Assembly (NCBI GenBank): GCA_049976365.1 | Contig: JBMFIJ010000001.1 | Span: forward strand, 1-60,095 | Source of the DNA: Candidatus Aenigmatarchaeota archaeon | Lineage (GTDB): Archaea > Aenigmatarchaeota > Aenigmatarchaeia > CG10238-14 > SpSt-28 | Length of the DNA stretch: 60,095 nt | Reading direction: 5' to 3' | Shown here: positions 1,027-59,216 of the stretch, piece after piece | Layout: the number at the start of each line of letters is the position of its first letter | Position numbering within the stretch: position 1 is the first letter of the stretch | The notes under the pieces: generated by a model | The model's database searches: none | Told to the model about the DNA's origin: nothing | What the model saw: only the letters and a program-made list of their open reading frames with translations | Translations under genes and position numbers: made by a program

Positions 1027-3519
1027 ATGAAAACATATATTACAAGGCTTACATTGCAAGGTTTTAAAAGTTTTAATAAAAAGATTTCCATACCTTTTAC
1101 TCCAGGCTTAACGGTTATAACTGGTCCTAATGGAAGTGGAAAAAGCAATATTATCGATGCTATTTCTTTTGTTCTGGGAAGAACATCAGCAAAGAGTATG
1201 AGAGCAGATAGATTAAGTGAATTAATTTTTAGGGGAACAGAAACTAAAAAGCCTGCAGAATATGCGAGTGTTACAATTTATTTTGATAATTCTAAGAAAA
1301 TTTTCCCTTTTGAAGAAAAAGAAATCTCTATAACAAGAAAAGTTAATAGAAAAGGATATGTAGTTTATAAGTTGAACGGTAAAACTGTAACAAGAGAAAA
1401 AATTCTGGAAGTCCTTTCTTTAGCTAACATAAGACCAGATGGCTATAATATAATTTTTCAGGGAGATGTTACTAGAGTTATTGAAATGAATCCTATAGAA
1501 AGGAGAGAAATAATAGATGAAATTTGTGGAATCGCGGAATATAATGAAAAGAAAGAAAAGGCAATGAAAGATTTAGAGATTGTTGATCAAAAGCTTAGAG
1601 AAGTGGAAATAATAGTAACTCAAAAATATGAAATATTCAAAAAGTTAGAAGAAGAAAGGAATGCTGCCTTAAGATATCAAGAGTTACAAAAGCAGTTATT
1701 AATATTGCAAGCATCATATTGGAAAAAGAAAGTAGAGGCGCTAGAAGAGAAATTAAATAAAATAGTTCAAGATATAAATCATATAAAGGAAAAAATCGAA
1801 AAAATCGATTCAGAGATTGTTGAAAAAGAAAAAAAACTTGAAGAGACCGAAAGAAACAACAGACAAATAATAGACAAAATAGTTGAACTTTCTAAAAGGA
1901 TAAGAATTGAAGAGGAAGCGAGTAGAATAAGATCAAGACTTATGTTAATAAAGGAGAAAATTGATATAGATAGAAGAGAAGCAGAGAGAATTCAAAATTT
2001 GATAGAAAAGTTAGAGGCGTTAGAAGTTAAAAAAGCAGAATTTAGTAGAGAGATGTCAAGGGCCACAAGAGAAATACTAAATTTAAAATTAAAGGGTGTT
2101 TATGGTACAGTTGCAGATCTAATTTCAGTTCCAGAAGAATATAAAATTGCTATAGAAGTAGCCGCAGCTCAACATTTGTATGATATTGTTGTAGAAAATG
2201 AAGATGTTGCTATAAATTGTATAAACTTTCTCAAAAGAGAAAAAATTGGAAGAGCTACTTTTCTGCCATTAAATAAAATAAAGCCTCAAGAGTTTAAAGA
2301 AAAAGATCTTTTGGATAAAGATGGAGTGATTGGTCTTGCTAGCAAATTAATAAGCTATGATAGAAAGTTTGAGCCTGCTATAGAATTTGTTTTTGGCAAT
2401 ACTTTAATAGTAGACAGTTTACAAACGGCTAAAGAAATAGGTATAGGAAAAGTAAGAATGGTAACTTTGGATGGAGATTTAGTTGAAAGAAGCGGTGCAA
2501 TAACAGGAGGTTTTCTTATAGTAGAGAGAAAAATGAAAGAAGAAAAAGAAGATATTGAGAAGTATAGAGAATTAAAGCTTCAACTTCTTAGGGAAATTGA
2601 AGAGCTAAAGAAAGAAGAGGAAGAATTGGAAAATAAGCTTAAAGAAATTGCTATTTCAGAAGAAAGTAAAGAAATGATAAATTTAGAAAAGCTAAAAATT
2701 TCTTCAGAGAGAGAAATTGAAAAGTTGAGAGAAGAAAGGAGAAAACTGCAAGATAGAAGAATAAACTTAGAAATTGAGATTAATAAACTAGCAATAGAAA
2801 AAGCAAAAATAGAAACAGAGTTAGAAAGTTCTAAAAAAGAGGCTGAAAAGTTTATAAATGTTGAAACATTAGATGAAAAACTTTCTGTTATAGAAGAGAA
2901 GTTAAGGAAAGTTGAAAGTGAGATTAAAAATATTGGAACAGTAAATTTGAAAGCAATAGAAGAGTATGAGATATTAAAAAAAGAGTTTGACGCACTTAAA
3001 GAAAAATATGAAAAAATTTTGGAAGAAAAGAAAGCTGTTATTAAAACAATTGAAGAAATAGAAAGTAAGAGAAGAGAGGTTTTCTTTTCAACTCTAGAGA
3101 AGATAAACAGTGAATTCAACAAAGTTTGTAGTGAAATGATGAATGGTAAAGGCCTATTGACTTTGGAAGATGTTAATAATTTAGATTCTGGCTTATTAAT
3201 ACAAATTACTCTTCCGGGAAAAAATGTCGATATAGATTCATTATCGGGAGGGGAAAAAACTTTAACAGCTTTAGCATTTCTATTCGCAATTCAGAGATAT
3301 AAGCCTTCAGACTTTTATTTGCTTGATGAAATAGATGCAGCATTGGACAAAGAAAATAGTTTAAAGGTCGCTCGATGGTTAAAGGAAATGTCAAAAGATT
3401 GTCAATTCATAACTATTTCTCACAATGATATAACAATAAGAGCTGCTGACAAACTTTATGGTTGCACGCTAGAAGACGGAGAAACAAAGATTTTATCTTT
3501 GGAGTTGCCAAAAGAATGA
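1027..3519 (+). CDS. smc: SMC chromosome-maintenance ATPase with unusually short coiled-coil arms (830 aa)
   Basis: Walker A GPNGSGKSN; central SMC hinge (GVYGTVADLISVPEEYKIAIEVAAAQHLYDIVVE...GRATFLPLNKI); signature LSGGEKTLTALAFLFAIQ; Walker B FYLLDEIDAALD. Confidence 0.85.
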   Translation: MKTYITRLTLQGFKSFNKKISIPFTPGLTVITGPNGSGKSNIIDAISFVLGRTSAKSMRADRLSELIFRGTETKKPAEYASVTIYFDNSKKIFPFEEKEISITRKVNRKGYVVYKLNGKTVTREKILEVLSLANIRPDGYNIIFQGDVTRVIEMNPIERREIIDEICGIAEYNEKKEKAMKDLEIVDQKLREVEIIVTQKYEIFKKLEEERNAALRYQELQKQLLILQASYWKKKVEALEEKLNKIVQDINHIKEKIEKIDSEIVEKEKKLEETERNNRQIIDKIVELSKRIRIEEEASRIRSRLMLIKEKIDIDRREAERIQNLIEKLEALEVKKAEFSREMSRATREILNLKLKGVYGTVADLISVPEEYKIAIEVAAAQHLYDIVVENEDVAINCINFLKREKIGRATFLPLNKIKPQEFKEKDLLDKDGVIGLASKLISYDRKFEPAIEFVFGNTLIVDSLQTAKEIGIGKVRMVTLDGDLVERSGAITGGFLIVERKMKEEKEDIEKYRELKLQLLREIEELKKEEEELENKLKEIAISEESKEMINLEKLKISSEREIEKLREERRKLQDRRINLEIEINKLAIEKAKIETELESSKKEAEKFINVETLDEKLSVIEEKLRKVESEIKNIGTVNLKAIEEYEILKKEFDALKEKYEKILEEKKAVIKTIEEIESKRREVFFSTLEKINSEFNKVCSEMMNGKGLLTLEDVNNLDSGLLIQITLPGKNVDIDSLSGGEKTLTALAFLFAIQRYKPSDFYLLDEIDAALDKENSLKVARWLKEMSKDCQFITISHNDITIRAADKLYGCTLEDGETKILSLELPKE

Positions 3520-3523
3520 AATT

Positions 3524-4156
3524 TTATTTTTTCAAATTCTTTTTTGAATATTTTAATATCAGTTTTTTGAATATTAGATAAGTTGCAATTGCTAAAAATA
3601 CTAAAATGCCAAAGAAAGATGACAAATCCCCTATTCCAAAATGTTTCCAATTTTCTCCGAAATAATATCCTACAGAAATCAAAAACGTCGACCATATTAT
3701 GGAGCCAGAAAATGTATAAATTATGTATTTTTCTAGTTTCATTTTTGTGAAACCGGCTGGAATAGAAATTAACTCTCTTATGCCAGGAACCATTCTTCCA
3801 AAGAAAACTGCTATGTTACCATAATTTTTAAACCAATTATCAGCAGCTCTAATTTTTTTCCTATCAATGAAAAAATATTTTCCATAATTTTCAATTAATC
3901 TTCTTCCAATTTTTAAGGCAAGATAATAGTAAACTAAAGAAGCAAGGGTTGAACCAAAAGCAGCTATTATTATACCTATAGCCAATCCAATAAAATTAAG
4001 ATTGTAGAATGAAATTAGATAACCTGATAAGGGTAAAATAATTTCACTAGGTATAGGAGGAAATATAGCCTCCAGAAATACTCCTATGAAAATTCCTAGA
4101 AACAAATTTTTCTGAATTGCCGTAATGATAAAATTTAGTAAGCTTTCTAGCATCAA
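3524..4156 (-). CDS. DedA/SNARE-associated family membrane protein
   Basis: 210 aa multi-TM protein with a DedA-like core (RMVPGIRELISIPAGFTKM, GYYFG). Confidence 0.65.
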   Translation of the reverse strand: MMLESLLNFIITAIQKNLFLGIFIGVFLEAIFPPIPSEIILPLSGYLISFYNLNFIGLAIGIIIAAFGSTLASLVYYYLALKIGRRLIENYGKYFFIDRKKIRAADNWFKNYGNIAVFFGRMVPGIRELISIPAGFTKMKLEKYIIYTFSGSIIWSTFLISVGYYFGENWKHFGIGDLSSFFGILVFLAIATYLIFKKLILKYSKKNLKK

Positions 4157-4214: not shown

Positions 4215-4547
4215 TTTGTTAGATTTCCGGCCACCCTTGGGCTGTTGGGAGTGGCAGGCTCGCAGCTCGCCCGAAGGCTCGCTGCATACACCTCCACCCC
4301 ATCAACGCCATCGTCTATGGCAGCCCTCGTCTCTCTACCGGGTTTCCCCAGTAGAGAGATTGGCCGTCTATTTTTCCGGGTGGTTTCCCCCTTAGATGCT
4401 TTCAGGGGTTATCCACTGGGGCGTGGCTGCCCGGCATGCCAAATGGACAACCGGTAAACCAGAGGCCCCGGAAGCGCGTTCCTTTCGTACTTGCGCTTCC
4501 TTCCGGTCAGACGGCTAGCACTCCCGGTAGATAGCGACCGAACTGTC

Positions 4548-4671
4548 TCTATCGCCGCATACAAGAGAATACTATCTATTAGATGTTTTCGACCCAGCAA
4601 CGATAGCTATTTCATCCTTTTGGCAAGATATAAATGCCAAAATGTCTATAGCAAGTGACCCTTGTATGCGG
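4548..4671 (-). other. About 124-nt insertion in 23S at the I-CreI/L2593 site (intron-like, no ORF)
   Basis: The canonical GUCGUGA|GACAGUUCGG is split. The insert ends pair perfectly: CCGCAUACAAG with CUUGUAUGCGG (11 bp). Confidence 0.8.
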
Positions 4672-4800
4672 TCACGACGTTCTGAACCCAGCTAGCGTCC
4701 CCCTTTAACCAGTGGACACCTGTACCCTTGGCCACTGCTGCATGGCCAGGAGGGGGGGAGCCGACAGCTACGCACCAACGCGCCGGGTCAATTTGCCTGT

Positions 4801-4900
4801 CACTATCTGCAGGAAACGAGACCCACGCAGATAGCTTTACTGTGGGCTTTCACCGGCCACGGGCCCATTCTGGAGGATAGGCAAAAATCAAAAGCCTATC
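4801..4900 (-). other. 57-100-nt insertion in 23S at the GGGGAUA|ACAG peptidyl-transferase site (I-SceI/L2449 position); boundary ambiguous
   Basis: GGGGAUA (4901-4907) is separated from ACAGGC (4795-4800) by 100 nt. A second ACAG at 4840-4843 gives an alternative 57-nt insert (4844-4900). The insert contains the hairpin GAUAGGC-UUUUGAUUUUU-GCCUAUC. Confidence 0.6.
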
Positions 4901-5044
4901 TATCCCCGAGGTAGCTTTTCTGATACCACCGGCCCCCATTAAGGGGTACCGATGTATCGCTAACCCACGCTTTCGCGGCTGGAACCCTCGCTTTGTGGGT
5001 TCCAGTCAGCCCACCTTTTGCGTTTGCACTCTACCCCGGATTTC

Positions 5045-5132
5045 TTTCGGGTGAAGATTCTCTTACTATCAAAAGCTACCCCGCTAATCATTTGGTCATT
5101 CGGGAGCGACCTTATCATCTAGAGAATCTTCA
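5045..5132 (-). other. About 88-nt insertion inside the conserved GGGUCA-GAAAUCC hairpin loop of 23S domain V
   Basis: A perfect 12-bp closing stem, UGAAGAUUCUCU/AGAGAAUCUUCA (5121-5132 with 5052-5063), interrupts CCCGGGUCA...GAAAUCCGGGG. Confidence 0.7.
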
Positions 5133-5360
5133 TGACCCGGGTGAGGTGAGCTTTGGGCCCCCTCGATATCTTTTCGAGGGGGTGCCGCCCCAGCCGAACT
5201 GCCCATCTAGCGCTGTCCCCTCTTCGGGTAAGCTGTAAAGTCCCAGAAGGCTGGTGTTACACTTGCCCCTCGGCTTCGGCCGAAGCCTACGCCTGATAGC
5301 GGGTCCCAGCTACTCTATGCAACCAGGACTTTACAGCAACGCCAGACTGCAGTAAAGCTC

Positions 5361-5398
5361 TCCGCTAGAAGGAATTAATGATTAATTCCTTCTATCTA
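5361..5398 (-). other. About 35-nt hairpin insertion in 23S after GACCCCGU (near E. coli 2068)
   Basis: The near-perfect palindrome AGAAGGAAUUAAUCAUUAAUUCCUUCU (5367-5393) sits between GACCCCGU and GAGCUUUACUGCAG, which are contiguous in canonical LSU rRNA. Confidence 0.65.
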
Positions 5399-5540
5399 CG
5401 GGGTCTACGTTTCCCACCGGGAGTCTCCGGCCTATTCACCGGAAAGCCGAGTTCGCTGGGTCCCTCCCCGGGACAGCGCCCAGGTCGTTAAGCTGTTCAA
5501 CCGGCCGCCATTTAAGCGGCAAGGGATTACGCTACTTCTG

Positions 5541-5618
5541 TCGCCCAAGGCGGCGTCTAGGCTTTCATAGCTATTTCTGTAAGTCAGAAGCTCTAGCTCA
5601 AATGACCGCCTGAGATAC
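5541..5618 (-). other. About 78-nt insertion in 23S at the I-CeuI/L1923 site (intron-like, no ORF)
   Basis: The canonical GUAACUCUGACCGUC|CUAAGGUAGCG reads GUAACUCUGACCGUC-[insert]-CAGAAGUAGCGUAAUCCCUUG. The insert ends (CAGGCGGUC ... GACGCCGCCUUG) can pair. Confidence 0.7.
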
Positions 5619-5746
5619 GACGGTCAGAGTTACCGCCGCCGCTCTGCGGGGCTTAGCCCGGTTGTAACCGGGTTTCACACACCGCAGCTGGGCAAACCTC
5701 AGGGACTGTACTCATCCTTTCGGACTAGCAGTCCCCTGCGTTTTTT

Positions 5747-5847
5747 AACCTGGGAAGAAAGGATATGATAGACTTTTTGGTAAGTTTGTAAATTGAACAT
5801 TTTTCCCAAACTATACCATTTAATACTTAAAATTTCCTCTCTTCCCG
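5747..5847 (-). other. About 100-nt AT-rich insertion in 23S after GACUGUUUAACAAAC (near E. coli 1785)
   Basis: Closing stem GGGAAGAGAGGA/UCCUUUCUUCCC (5835-5846 with 5752-5763). The canonical sequence continues AAAAACGCAGG immediately after the insert. Confidence 0.7.
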
Positions 5848-7243
5848 TTTGTTAAACAGTCGCCTGGGCCTTGTCACTGCGACCTGCAGTCCCTTCTATC
5901 CCTTGCCTTCTAAAGAAGGCTTAGGATAGTCAGGACTACAGGCACCCCTTCTAGCGAACATACGGGGCCAACTTGCCGATTTCCCTGGGGAGGGTTCTCC
6001 CAACACGCCGTTCCCTTCTCAGGAAGCCCACCTGTGCCGGTTCTCGGTACGGTCTAGGGGAATCCTTGTGGATTGCCTTTTCACGGGCTCCAAGAATCGG
6101 CCGAACTCCCTTACGGGAGCCCATCCTGCCTTCAGCTCCTTCTCCTCATTACGAGACTCCGGAGCCTTCGGCAGTTAGCTTGCGTCGGCCTATCTCGAAG
6201 CGTCGGCAATCCACCTTGCCTCGCGGCACGTATCCCCTAGGTTCCGGAATATTAACCGGATTCCCTTTCTCGGGTTCGCCGATTAAGGGAACCCTTAGGA
6301 CCGACTAACTGCCGGCTGACGAACATTGCCGGCAAACCCTTGGGCTTCAGGCGGCTGGGATTCTCACCCAGCTCGGCTGCTACTTTCGGCGGGATCTGCA
6401 TTACTGTGTGGTCCATGGGAGTTCACACCCCCACTTCTACCCACACAGTACGCCCCCCTACCATCTCTTATCGAGATCTGGGGTATCGGCAGTCGGCTTA
6501 GTCCCTTCCATCTTCAGGGCACAAACCCTCGGCGGGTAAGTTGTTGTACACTTCTTAGCTGATGGCTACTTTTAGGCCCACAGCCCCGCTGTCTAAGGGT
6601 TTGTACCCCTTCTTCGTTTAGCCGACATTTAGGGGCCTTAACCCCAGTCTGGGTTGTTCCCCTCACGAGTGCCGAGCTTACCCCAGCACTCATTTTCCCA
6701 CCTTCTACGAGGCTGGCGGATTCGGAGTTTGACAGAGTGGCTGAGCCTTTCGGCCCTTGACCACTCGATCAGTAACTCTACCCCACCAGCACTCTCAGGT
6801 GAGACTGCTCTGCGGAGCATATCGGGGGGAACCGGCTATGAGGCCGCTCGATTGGCTTTTCACCCCTAATCCTGGCTCACGAGAGGGATTGGCATCTCAC
6901 CACCTCTATCGGGCCTCCACCTCCCTTTCGGGAGGCTTCACCCTGGCCAGGATTAGATCGCGGCCCTTCCGGTTGTAGGCGAGTGACTTCAGGCGCTTTC
7001 ACACCCCGCGCCTCACTTGGTTTTAACCAAGTTGCGCGCGAGTCGCTTTCGCTACGGCTTCGGGGTTTAACCCCTTAACCTCGCCACTCACCTACACTCC
7101 CCGCCCCGTTTTTCCAAACGGACGTCAGGACGGTGTTAGTCGTCTCTCGCTTTTTAGCTTCAAGACGACATCTTTCCCGCCCTGACAGACTATAACCGCT
7201 TGGTTTCAGGCTCTTTTCACCCCGCTTTCGCGGTGCTTTTCAG

Positions 7244-7344
7244 CTTTCCAGGCGGTTAGCCGAGTAAAAGGATTAAGTTTAAATAAAAAATTCCAGCTTT
7301 TCCTGATTGAATCATTTTATTACATATATGCCTTCGACTAACCG
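7244..7344 (-). other. About 101-nt AT-rich insertion in 23S domain I (between GGAAAG and CUGAAAAGCACC)
   Basis: The canonical GUACCGUGAGGGAAAGCUGAAAAGCACC is split. The insert is bounded by the direct repeat GGAAAG and closed by GCGGUUAGUCGA/UCGGCUAACCGC. Confidence 0.7.
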
Positions 7345-7867
7345 CTTTCCGTCACCGTACTAGTACGCTATCGGACTCTGGGTGTGTTTAGGGTTGGATG
7401 TTAATGCCACCCAGCTTCCCACTCCCAAATCAGGGAATGGTACTCAGGAGACCTGGAATTTCCCTTCTCCCCTTCCCCTACGGGACTATCACCCTCTATG
7501 GTAGGGCATTCCAGCCCACTTCGGGTCGAGGAGTTAGGGAATACCCAGGTCCTACAACTCCACATTCCAGTTAGCTTTTCGCCAACCGGTTCGGTTTGCC
7601 CTTTGCCGGTTTCGGTCGCCCCTACTCCCGGCATCTCATTTGATTTCTCTTCCTGCGGGTACTGAGATGCTTCACTTCCCCGCGTCCCCCTTCCAGGTCT
7701 TTAAGACCTGGAATGCCTCTAAACGAGGCAGGATTCCCATTCGGAAATCCCGGGGTCTAAGGCCGCGTGCGCCTAACCCGGGCCTATCGTGGCTTGCCAC
7801 GTCCTTCTTCGGCCCCAGAGCCGAGCCATCCACCAAGCGGCGTAGCAGTGGCCGGAAACCCCTTAAC

Positions 7868-15126: not shown

Positions 15127-15378
15127 GGTGTGCCTGCCATAACCCACCTTCTGTTCAGGGCAGCATTCGTCTAAGCGCCTTAAAGGCTTGCATCTCATCG
15201 ATTGTGTAGGTCCGTTTCACCCTTTTGTAAGCAACTCATATTTTAATCATCGTTATCGCTTACAAAAGGTCTCGTTTCTGATACCTACACAGGGCTTCTC
15301 AGCCCTTTTAATCTCGATGGGTGGAATTTCCTCACCCTTGCTTTTGGGCAAGGGCGAAGCTGCCCAGCAGGCTCACCC
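15126..15378 (-). ncRNA. rnpB: RNase P RNA (compact, about 253 nt, type A-like)
   Basis: The reverse strand reads:
- P1: GGGUGAGCCUGC, pairing with GCAGGCACACCC at the 3' end.
- P2: GGGCAGC/GCUGCCC.
- CR-I: GAGGAAAUUCCACC.
- CR-II/III: AGGGUGAAACGGAC.
- CR-V: ACAGAAGGUGGGUUAUGG.
The region is a GC-rich island. Confidence 0.85.
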
Positions 15379-32931: not shown

Positions 32932-32984
32932 GGTGAATAGGATTTAGCAATCAGTATCTACAACTCAAAAGGCTAATTAAAGAA

Positions 32985-34553
32985 TTGGAAAAAATAAAAG
33001 GGAGACATACAGAGTTGGTTTCAGTCTATATTCCTGCTGGCTACAATTTGTATGAAATGATAAATCAGCTTATTCAGGAAAAGTCTACAGCAGAAAACAT
33101 AAAAAGCAAATCTACAAGAAAAAATGTAATTTCTGCTCTAGAAAAAATTATTCAATACTTAAGGTTATTCAAGCAAACTCCTCCAAACGGTTTAGCAGTT
33201 TTTGCTGGGAATGTTTCTGAATTCGAAGGAAAAGAAGATATAAGACTTTGGGCTATAGAGCCGCCAGAGAAACTCGAAACTAAAATTTATTGGTGCGATC
33301 AAGTTTTTGTTTTAGATCCGCTAAAAGAAATGGTAAAGGAAAAAGATGTTTATGGATTAATAGTTTTAGATGCTAGAGAGGCTACTATTGGACTTTTAAA
33401 AGGTAAGAAAATAATTGTTAAAAAAAGATTGGATTCTACAGTTCCAAGCAAAACAGTTAAAGGAGGAATGTGTTTACATAGATCAACCCTAATAACTTTA
33501 TCTAATGGCCAAAAAATACCAATAAATAAAATAAAGAAAGGAGATGAAGTTTTGTGTTTTGATTTTACTGAAAATAAAATAAAGACAGGAATAGTGAAGG
33601 AAATTTATAAGAGAAAGGTTGAAAAAGCTAAAAAAATATTTTATGAGAGAAACAGTTTGATAGTCAGTGAAGATCATTTACTGTTTGTTAAAGAAAATGA
33701 GATTAAAGAAAAGCCAGTTAGAGAAATCAAAAGACAAGAAGTGGTTTTTGTTTTGGATAATGAAGTAAAAGAAGTGCAAATTAAAAATTTGAGTGAGGTT
33801 TCTGTAGAAGCTTCTATATTCTTCTATGATTTAGAAGTCTATCCTTTTGGAAACTATTTCGCAAATGATTTGCTTGTGCATAATTCGCAAGGTAGATATG
33901 ATAGGCTTAGAGAAGATGCAATAAATGAATTTTTAACCAAAGTTGGAGAAGTAGCATCTAATATATTTCTAGAAGAAAACGTCCTAGGTGTTTTAATAGG
34001 AGGTCCAGGCCCAGTTAAAGAAAGACTAGCTAAGGAAGATTATCTTAACTATCAGATTAAAAAGAAAATACTCGGAATAAAAGATATAGGTTATGCAGAT
34101 GAATATGGGCTTGAAGAACTAGTAAAAAGGTCAGAGGATTTGTTACAACAAGCAGAGATATTTAGAGAGAAAAATTTGCTTAACAAATTTTTTGTAACTC
34201 TACGAGATAAAGGAAATGCAGTTGTAGGGTTAGATAATGTAATTAAGGCTTTAGAAATGGGGGCAGTAGAAGAAATTATTATTGTTGAAAACTTTGATTA
34301 TGTTAGAAAGTACTTGATTTGTGAAAATGGTCATACGAAAACTGTTATATCTAAAAGAGATGAAAAAATATTTTGTGATGTTTGCGGGAAAGAAATGAAA
34401 GTTGAAAAGGAAGAGGAAATTTACGATGAAATAATTGATAAAGCAGAAAGTATAGGAATAAAAGTGAATATAGTTTCTGATGAGACAGAAGAAGGTAAGG
34501 GACTTAAAAGTATGGGCGGGATAGGAGCATTTTTGCGTTTCAAGATAGATTAG
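32985..34553 (+). CDS. prf1: Peptide chain release factor aRF1, interrupted by a mini-intein; the true start is probably upstream of 32985
   Basis: NIKS motif (TAENIKSKSTRKNV), YxCxxxF (YWCDQVF), the GG..SQGRYDRLRED middle domain and a C-terminal zinc-ribbon mini-domain. 522 aa versus about 385 after intein removal. Confidence 0.9.
   Translation: MEKIKGRHTELVSVYIPAGYNLYEMINQLIQEKSTAENIKSKSTRKNVISALEKIIQYLRLFKQTPPNGLAVFAGNVSEFEGKEDIRLWAIEPPEKLETKIYWCDQVFVLDPLKEMVKEKDVYGLIVLDAREATIGLLKGKKIIVKKRLDSTVPSKTVKGGMCLHRSTLITLSNGQKIPINKIKKGDEVLCFDFTENKIKTGIVKEIYKRKVEKAKKIFYERNSLIVSEDHLLFVKENEIKEKPVREIKRQEVVFVLDNEVKEVQIKNLSEVSVEASIFFYDLEVYPFGNYFANDLLVHNSQGRYDRLREDAINEFLTKVGEVASNIFLEENVLGVLIGGPGPVKERLAKEDYLNYQIKKKILGIKDIGYADEYGLEELVKRSEDLLQQAEIFREKNLLNKFFVTLRDKGNAVVGLDNVIKALEMGAVEEIIIVENFDYVRKYLICENGHTKTVISKRDEKIFCDVCGKEMKVEKEEEIYDEIIDKAESIGIKVNIVSDETEEGKGLKSMGGIGAFLRFKID
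33471..33884 (+). mobile_element. Mini-intein (138 aa, no endonuclease domain) inserted at the GGQ loop of aRF1
   Basis: Block A CLHRSTLITLSNG, block B SEDHLLF, block F FFYDLEVYPFGNYFAN, block G DLLVHN followed by +1 Ser. The flanking exteins align contiguously to aRF1. Confidence 0.85.
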
Positions 34554-58852: not shown

Positions 58853-59067
58853 TATCCTCTTTAGCTTTAACTTTTCAAATATATGTCTTTTTTTATCGAA
58901 AACCAAAGGCTGAGAAAAGAAGAGCTCTCAGAAAAACTTAAAAATCTTCTATGTAAGCTCTATATTCTTACTCAGTTTTGGAAGCCACAATGTTTGAAAA
59001 TGTAATAAATAAAATTTTACTGCAATTCTCCATTTTTTATTTTTCTATTTAAAGGCTCTATTAAAAA

Positions 59068-59152
59068 CGCTGGGGGCGGGATTTGAACCCGCAAGGGGAT
59101 AAACCCCACAGGCTTAGCAGACCTGCGCCCTACCAGGTTAGGCGACCCCAGC
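59068..59152 (-). tRNA. tRNA-Ser (anticodon GCU), class II with a long variable arm; no encoded CCA
   Basis: The reverse strand folds as follows:
- Acceptor: GCTGGGG/CCCCAGC.
- D arm: GCCT-AACCTGGTA-GGGC.
- Anticodon arm: CAGGT-CTGCTAA-GCCTG.
- Variable arm: TGGGGTTTATCCCCTT.
- T arm: GCGGG-TTCAAAT-CCCGC. Confidence 0.9.
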
Positions 59153-59216
59153 ATCCAATTAAAATTTACTTTTAGAATTCTTTAAATATTAGAAAAATAA
59201 AGTTAAAAATGGAGGA

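Follow-up and report, generated by a model that had tools for sequence, protein, structure and literature searches.

An aRF1 family gene of an Aenigmatarchaeota archaeon with a predicted Gly-Gly-Met loop in place of GGQ and a mini-intein at the same site

To our knowledge, the GGQ tripeptide is cited as the sole motif common to all class I release factors across the three domains of life, and, as far as we know, a dedicated methyltransferase of universal distribution (PrmC or Mtq2-HemK2) acts on its glutamine. This glutamine is normally N5-methylated. In bacterial release factors, most of the catalysis is said to rest on the glycine pair together with the third residue's backbone NH, while the glutamine side chain reportedly serves chiefly to fill a pocket of the 23S rRNA made of A2451, C2452, and U2506 and to select water. 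The same three nucleotides have been described as the glutamine pocket in a paper that also states that an isoleucine side chain can occupy it (PMC11890864). Here, we describe a gene for archaeal release factor 1 (aRF1) in which this glutamine is replaced. The gene lies on contig JBMFIJ010000001.1 of Candidatus Aenigmatarchaeota archaeon (assembly GCA_049976365.1), of which positions 1 to 60,095 were analysed and are referred to as the window. An intein splits its catalytic loop, which reads GGM after predicted splicing.

The codons GGA GGA ATG directly before the intein would be joined to TCG CAA directly behind it, giving the ligated extein ...STVPSKTVKGGM-SQGRYDRLREDAINEF with the spliced loop KGGM-SQGRYDRLRED. 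A phmmer search against the PDB places the Met, without a gap, on the Gln of GGQ in both the aRF1 of H. salinarum (PDB ID 4AF1, vpgkqrkGGQsaqrfarlr) and human eRF1 (GGQSALRFARLR). No GGQ tripeptide is present anywhere in the precursor, and the Gly-Gly pair and the Ser following the third loop residue are retained. The original prediction, made from the DNA alone, had set the intein boundaries where the codons indeed place them, had derived the GGM loop, and had aligned it with the pattern GGQS..R[FY].R.RE, all of which agrees with our reading of the codons and with the phmmer alignments. A frameshift, or an alternative intein boundary that would put the Met inside the intein, was rejected outright.

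The same prediction argued that a single sequencing error could hardly produce the Met, and this holds: at least two substitutions separate ATG from CAA or CAG, and the GGM gene is also found in two independent NCBI assemblies of metagenome-assembled genomes (MAGs) as well as in relatives. An identical protein is encoded on JBMFMJ010000001.1 (GCA_049970735.1), and a 99% identical GGM gene is present in GCA_049972275.1, where contig JBMFKN010000001.1 is 99.0-99.6% identical to the window; both assemblies are named Candidatus Aenigmatarchaeota archaeon. Nothing other than the metagenomic origin of the source genome speaks for an error in sequencing or assembly, or for a pseudogene in decay. With the same codon in independent assemblies, an unbroken frame of 538 codons, conserved catalytic residues of the intein, and a non-Gln residue kept across more than 100 clusters at 46-99% identity, such an artefact has practically no probability.

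The assignment to the aRF1 family is supported by several profiles. The open reading frame (ORF) spans 32937/32985-34553 on the forward strand and encodes 522-538 amino acids, depending on the start. Its product reaches 430.8 bits with the aRF1 equivalog model TIGR03676 (cut-off 234.7) in two stretches on either side of the intein, and the Pfam domains eRF1_1, eRF1_2, and eRF1_3 (PF03463, PF03464, and PF03465) all exceed their cut-offs. The AlphaFold (AF2) model of the precursor has a predicted local distance difference test (pLDDT) value of 84, and the top Foldseek matches of the whole model are the aRF1 structure 4AF1 and ribosome-bound eRF1 from 80S complexes. The start codon is uncertain and likely non-canonical: the frame is open from 32937, the N-termini of relatives align across its 5' part, no ATG, GTG, or TTG lies upstream of the TTG at 32985 in this frame, and the start chosen by the Prokaryotic Genome Annotation Pipeline (PGAP) is the ATT at 32976. 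A Shine-Dalgarno-like GGTGA is found at 32932-32936, before the frame. TAA, TAG, and TGA terminate 37, 16, and 11 window ORFs, respectively; with all three stop codons in use within the window, nothing points to an altered genetic code.

The inserted element has the residues of a class 1 mini-intein. Across 64 mini-inteins sharing the insertion site, C1, D120, H137, and N138 are 100% conserved and H69 is conserved in 98%. The AF2 model shows a beta-rich domain with high pLDDT at residues 163-300, between the catalytic loop and the long domain-2 helix (residues 301-331), and Foldseek superposes this segment on the NpuDnaB and SspDnaB mini-inteins (template modelling score 0.88, root mean square deviation 1.7-1.8). 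In-frame excision restores the host sequence, with intein-free homologues reading KGGMSQ.RYDR without a gap. From the conserved catalytic residues we infer that the aRF1 precursor is spliced.

Inteins occupy the GGX/Ser site (33470/33471 in the window) in 144 of 282 collected sequences, which come from DPANN-type archaea, and exist there both as mini forms of about 135-150 amino acids and as LAGLIDADG-containing forms of about 400-580 amino acids. The residue preceding them is Met in 89 sequences, Gln in 44, Trp in 7, Phe in 2, and Tyr and Ser in 1 each. The intein acts as a mobile element, targeting the conserved aRF1 loop regardless of the third residue. This bears on a proposal of the original prediction, namely that intein and -1 Met are co-adapted; such a Met would aid splicing at the N-terminal junction. 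The -1 residue affects intein splicing rates, and it is Met in the window; against this stand about 40 intein-free homologues with GGMSQ and the inteins inserted at the same site behind Gln, in 44 GGQ aRF1s, or behind Trp, Phe, Tyr, or Ser. Because GGM alleles exist that are free of the intein and the intein also follows Gln, the Met is unrelated to it, and the co-adaptation proposal, very improbable on these counts, is refuted.

A second aRF1 intein site lies within the YxCxxxF motif (LY./C...HN/CDDHF, with slashes at the insertion points) in five proteins outside the window, where the inteins use the Cys of this motif as the +1 nucleophile; some proteins have inteins at both sites. In NCBI records, some of the intein-bearing aRF1s go by the name "hypothetical protein" and some by "LAGLIDADG family homing endonuclease".

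The absence of the glutamine, presented in the original prediction as a peculiarity of one gene, proved to be clade-wide. We searched 5.8 billion protein clusters and inspected the best 120 homologues, all from Aenigmatarchaeota. Their third loop residue is Met in 117 cases and Phe, Trp, and Tyr in one case each, with no Gln at all; about 40 of the 120 are intein-free, and an alignment of 19 intein-free GGM homologues (A1) has the Met, M171, as an invariant column. With a profile of the intein-free GGM proteins, HMMER was run exhaustively over 1.84 billion representatives, and 152 near-full-length representatives could be typed: 109 GGQ, 23 GGM, 12 GGW, 3 GGF, 2 GGE, and single GGS, GGA, and GGY proteins. 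The Gly-Gly pair, the Ser behind the third residue, and the R-[YF]-x-R-x-R helix do not vary, and NIKS and YxCxxxF are unchanged across the clade. These alignments indicate that the Met is an inherited and selectively maintained trait of a large aRF1 group of the Aenigmatarchaeota, which comprises GGM proteins with GGW, GGF, and GGY relatives.

In a neighbour-joining (NJ) tree, the sequences with Met, Trp, Phe, or Tyr share one neighbourhood, and NCBI labels its closest GGQ members (P0134/P0269 and others) Aenigmarchaeota. Without the loop columns, two small GGQ groups are interleaved with one GGW group, and the monophyly of all non-Gln Aenigmatarchaeota aRF1s is unsupported (2 of 100 NJ bootstraps). 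We take this to mean that the Gln was lost once or twice, or that a reversal occurred, within the Aenigmatarchaeota, rather than a single event. The loss also recurs independently in other DPANN lineages. Five separate GGW or GGF lineages lie outside the Aenigmatarchaeota neighbourhood, a Nanoarchaeia species-representative genome with a 536-kb contig (JAQUOT01) has GGF, and a dedicated search found 10 distinct GGF-SQ clusters nested among the GGQ aRF1s of Nanoarchaeia/Woesearchaeota, where they form a GGF subclade. In a scan of GTDB genomes, limited to the best 80 loci of at least 600 pattern matches, genomes labelled Aenigmatarchaeota (or unlabelled, with an aRF1 of the same neighbourhood) are of GGQ, GGW, or GGM kinds; the closed 875-kb chromosome CP066684.1 is among those with GGQ. 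JAFGFG01, with a 323-kb contig, has GGW.

Two further observations concern the variability of the family. The NIKS motif is replaced by NIKD in 106 of 120 Nanoarchaeia/Woesearchaeota aRF1s, which indicates that the stop codon motif is variable in DPANN archaea as well. Other loop variants are the two GGE proteins (P0264 and P0265), in which a motif search found no NIKS, and the GGA and GGS proteins (P0253 and P0184 among the variants); all of these could be aRF1 paralogues of other kinds.

On the sequence evidence, the window gene probably encodes the organism's genuine class I release factor, one whose catalytic loop has been altered in nature. The non-Gln aRF1s reach TIGR03676 scores of 433-482 bits (459-477 for the intein-free GGM relatives), next to 449-519 for the neighbouring GGQ aRF1s, and their NJ root-to-tip depths, mostly 0.45-0.58, do not exceed the depths of GGQ sequences. 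The Pelota model TIGR00111 gives the window protein 56.3 bits against a cut-off of 177.65, and the Balon-type models NF052288 and NF052289 (MSMEG_1130 and Rv2629 families) give 27.4 against 480 and 24.8 against 320, with NIKS being present. Intein-free GGM proteins are called aRF-1 by PGAP. A stop codon reader that is kept under selection yet is unable to release would compete with the real factor, so that a working factor is the simplest reading. Three possibilities had been put forward in the original prediction, a second, canonical aRF1 elsewhere in the genome, a factor working with an altered motif, and co-adaptation to the intein; with the last one gone, the altered but working factor is the one best supported by the sequences.

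A second, canonical aRF1 would fit an alternative in which the window protein is a non-catalytic or specialised paralogue, binding stop codons without hydrolysis as a regulator, a read-through factor, or a hibernation-type factor, while a standard GGQ aRF1 encoded elsewhere terminates translation. Paralogues of the aeRF1 family lacking GGQ are known (Pelota and Balon; PMC13324472), the GGE proteins without NIKS belong to the family, GGQ aRF1s labelled Aenigmarchaeota exist, and one MAG can hold two aRF1s. This MAG, GCA_039091315.1, has two full-length, intein-free GGM aRF1s that are 71% identical and lie in different neighbourhoods (JAWCMH010000008.1 and JAWCMH010000006.1), explained by a duplication or, alternatively, by the co-binning of two relatives; it is the sole MAG found with two copies, and both are GGM. 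The window has no second aRF1-like gene in its 60 kb, and among the best 80 loci of the GTDB scan no assembly has two aRF1 hits or combines GGQ with non-Gln; the Aenigmatarchaeota-labelled aRF1s with GGQ and those without the Gln came from separate assemblies. A comparison of neighbouring GenBank accessions found no GGM protein close to the GGQ Aenigmarchaeota accessions. Synteny is uninformative on orthology, as the window gene, one intein-free GGM gene, and one GGQ sister share no useful neighbours. Together with the invariant NIKS and YxCxxxF motifs of a protein that would compete with the true factor if it did not release, the orthologue-like HMM (hidden Markov model) scores and branch lengths, the Pelota and Balon scores far under their cut-offs, and the PGAP name, these results make a paralogue quite unlikely.

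Some points weigh against a genuine, working GGM release factor. The search for a second copy covered the 60-kb window and the best 80 scan loci, and a canonical GGQ aRF1 may be encoded elsewhere. In model organisms, Gln mutants of eRF1 and of RF1/2 reportedly fail to function in vivo or are lethal. The deep nodes of the single-protein tree are weak, with bootstrap values of 16-43 when the loop columns are left out. Finally, a few GGM and GGW proteins (P0084, P0092, P0101, P0102, P0111, and P0125) do not have the Gln that follows the loop Ser at position +2, and have Ala or Ser in its place (GGMSA and GGMSS).

This Gln+2, which gives the loop the form GGxSQ, is otherwise characteristic of the variants. 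It is present in 36 of 39 representatives with a hydrophobic third residue, compared with 22 of 109 GGQ representatives, in all 5 outlying Trp or Phe lineages, and in all 10 GGF clusters of Nanoarchaeia. At position +5, Tyr replaces Phe in 34 of 39 hydrophobic variants and in 25 of 109 GGQ proteins. The covariation of Gln+2 supports a putatively compensated loop; since a few GGM/GGW proteins have Ala or Ser at this position, it is not an obligatory replacement.

A possible mechanism can be outlined. The precursor would be made with its catalytic loop interrupted by the mini-intein, and splicing through Cys1, His-Asn, and Ser+1 would join ...KGGM to SQGRYDRL.... The spliced aRF1 would still read stop codons by means of NIKS and YxCxxxF and would still trigger the hydrolysis of peptidyl-tRNA. 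The hydrophobic Met, Trp, Phe, or Tyr would plug the glutamine pocket in the manner of N5-methyl-Gln or Ile, and Gln+2 may take on a polar role.

Gln+2 could alternatively be the true catalytic residue, the loop re-registering as GG-x-S-Q with the Met as a spacer. Such a GGxSQ catalytic loop has been described for the Vms1-like proteins aVLRF-1 and acVLRF-1 (Burroughs & Aravind 2019, PMC6514570), and the strong enrichment of Gln+2 in all hydrophobic variants, independent lineages included, agrees with it. The GGM and GGW proteins with Ala or Ser at +2 argue against a register shift, and so does the presence of Gln+2 in 20-47% of GGQ aRF1s; being frequent there, it may be a permissive background and not a replacement. 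We consider the register shift unlikely. With regard to the methylation of the loop, no HemK2/MTQ2 homologue was found within the 60-kb window. A HemK2/MTQ2-family gene, the family of the release factor Gln methyltransferase, is located at 3273-3875 of locus L002, 6 kb upstream of a GGQ sister aRF1.

The window also contains a 23S rRNA gene whose peptidyl-transferase centre is unusual. We mapped its positions, given in E. coli numbering, from Rfam alignments. The gene deviates from the archaeal consensus at normally invariant sites (chiefly within 4758-4775 and 4866-4868), with C2452U, A2453G, A2497G, C2499G, C2501A, A2503C, and U2586C; A2497G, C2499G, C2501A, and A2503C sit on the other strand of the centre from C2452U and A2453G. 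At least 14 related 23S genes from metagenomes share the altered centre sequence and lack the 32-nucleotide (nt) insert that follows A2450 in the window, reading GGGGAUAAUGGGCC, the mature sequence. Other relatives have introns of 242-659 nt at the same site, and the 32-nt element appears, from its sequence, to be a bulge-helix-bulge mini-intron. As the intron-less relatives give the mature sequence, the mature centre would have C2452U and A2453G. Several small inserts lie within domain V of the gene (Table 1), and the loop of H89 is extended, with a 53-nt insertion in locus L092.

Whether the altered pocket and the GGM loop belong together can be weighed at few loci. None of the 33 metagenome 23S loci carries an aRF1, and the sole comparator with aRF1 and 23S rRNA on one contig, a GGQ archaeon, has C2452, yet it also has A2503C. 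With one data point per side, the link between C2452U and GGM is a hypothesis and not a finding. A wider proposal would be that the entire archaeal clade terminates translation without a catalytic Gln, that the factor and a remodelled pocket (C2452U plus A2453G, A2497G, C2499G, C2501A, and A2503C) co-evolved, that Mtq2 methylation is dispensable, and that Met, Trp, Phe, or Tyr acts as a hydrophobic plug with Gln+2 as a helper; we offer it as a speculation that is on the doubtful side. The coordinates of the gene parts and rRNA features are collected in Table 1. An archaeal RNase P RNA (138 bits, 15128-15376, minus strand) and a tRNA-Ser(GCU) (59067-59153, minus strand) in the window are ordinary.

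Table 1. Coordinates of the aRF1 gene parts, the intein, and the 23S rRNA features in the window (bp, base pairs)
Feature	Position	Strand	Evidence or remark
aRF1 N-extein (domain 1, then domain 2 as far as the catalytic loop)	32937-33470	+	Pfam eRF1_1, eRF1_2; TIGR03676 residues 8-183; N-termini of homologues
NIKS stop codon recognition motif, intact	33096-33107	+	Invariant in A1
YxCxxxF motif (YWCDQVF), intact	33288-33308	+	Y111, C113, F117 invariant in A1
GGA GGA ATG, Gly-Gly-Met at the GGQ position; Met is the intein -1 residue	33462-33470	+	Aligned to GGQ of 4AF1 and eRF1
Class 1 mini-intein, 414 nt (138 amino acids), without endonuclease domain	33471-33884	+	Pfam Hint 30.2 bits (cut-off 29.7)
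Intein TGT, Cys1	33471-33473	+	
Intein block B, SEDH, His69	33666-33677	+	
Intein block F, YDLEV, Asp120	33825-33839	+	
Intein C-terminus CAT AAT, His137-Asn138	33879-33884	+	Followed by TCG CAA GGT AGA, 33885-33896 (Ser+1, Gln+2, Gly, Arg)
TCG CAA, Ser+1 (predicted splice nucleophile; invariant Ser after GGQ) and Gln+2	33885-33890	+	GGxSQ loop together with GGM
aRF1 C-extein: remaining domain 2 (SQGRYDRLRED helix, GGPGP), domain 3 with Cys4 zinc-ribbon insert CENGH...CDVCG, TAG stop	33885-34553	+	Pfam eRF1_2, eRF1_3; PDB alignment
23S rRNA gene	4225-7857	-	3633 nt, compared with a 2987-nt model
A2451, U2452, G2453 of 23S rRNA	4866-4868	-	Rfam alignments; C2452, a Gln-pocket nucleotide, is U here
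32-nt insert directly after A2450	4869-4900	-	Bulge-helix-bulge: 4-bp GGGG/CUCC helix, 3-nt bulges on either side
Insert of about 123 nt at the A2602 region	about 4550-4672	-	12-bp closing helix
92-nt insert near model position 2400, domain V of 23S rRNA		-	

A full-text literature search returned no report of a GGM, GGW, or GGF aRF1, nor of an intein in aRF1. What appears to be new, judging from these alignments, is a lineage of bona fide aRF1s in which the catalytic Gln has been replaced in nature, by which the "universal" GGQ motif would have natural exceptions. With Met, Trp, Phe, or Tyr in its only detectable aRF1, a deep and species-rich archaeal group would offer a natural experiment on the role of the Gln side chain, for which catalysis, nucleophile selection, and pocket filling are candidates, and on that of its methylation. 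The lineage offers natural variants, among them the recurring GGxSQ loop, along with an rRNA change that is a candidate for compensation. In addition, filters that rely on GGQ to separate aRF1 from Pelota or Balon would misclassify the non-Gln aRF1s.

Compared with the canonical aRF1/eRF1 proteins (H. salinarum 4AF1, A. pernix 3AGK, and human eRF1 1DT9), the window protein is alike in its three domains, the NIKS and YxCxxxF motifs, the Gly-Gly and Ser of the loop, the R[FY]xRxR helix, the zinc-ribbon insert of domain 3, and an HMM score above the cut-off. It differs in having Met, or Trp, Phe, or Tyr in its relatives, for the normally N5-methylated Gln, and in the intein lying exactly at that residue. 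Pelota/Dom34 and Balon-type factors have the same fold and also lack the catalytic Gln, but they lack NIKS as well, which the window protein has, and score on their own models.

The spliced GGMSQ fits the GGxSQ pattern of the Vms1-like VLRF1 proteins. The Pfam model acVLRF1 (PF18859) gives the window protein 23.6 against a cut-off of 27.1, the same weak match being seen in ordinary GGQ aRF1s, and the VLRF1 proteins are without the stop codon recognition domain that the window protein has. The likeness to VLRF1 is probably one of motif and not of descent.

Laboratory mutants of the Gln (RF1 Q235X, eRF1 Q185X, and eRF1(AAQ)) reportedly indicate that, for hydrolysis in vitro, the backbone and the glycines matter more than the side chain. 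They concern the same position; those changes are engineered and generally deleterious in vivo, whereas the change in the window arose naturally, has become fixed, and is conserved throughout a deep clade. The intein resembles the class 1 mini-inteins of Npu/Ssp DnaB and Pho RadA in Cys1, the block B His, the block F Asp, the His-Asn/Ser junction, and the HINT fold, and, like them, it is inserted into an essential protein at the loop that is most conserved. It differs from the known mini-inteins in its host site, the aRF1 GGQ loop, which is absent from the literature found, and in having relatives with a full-length LAGLIDADG version.

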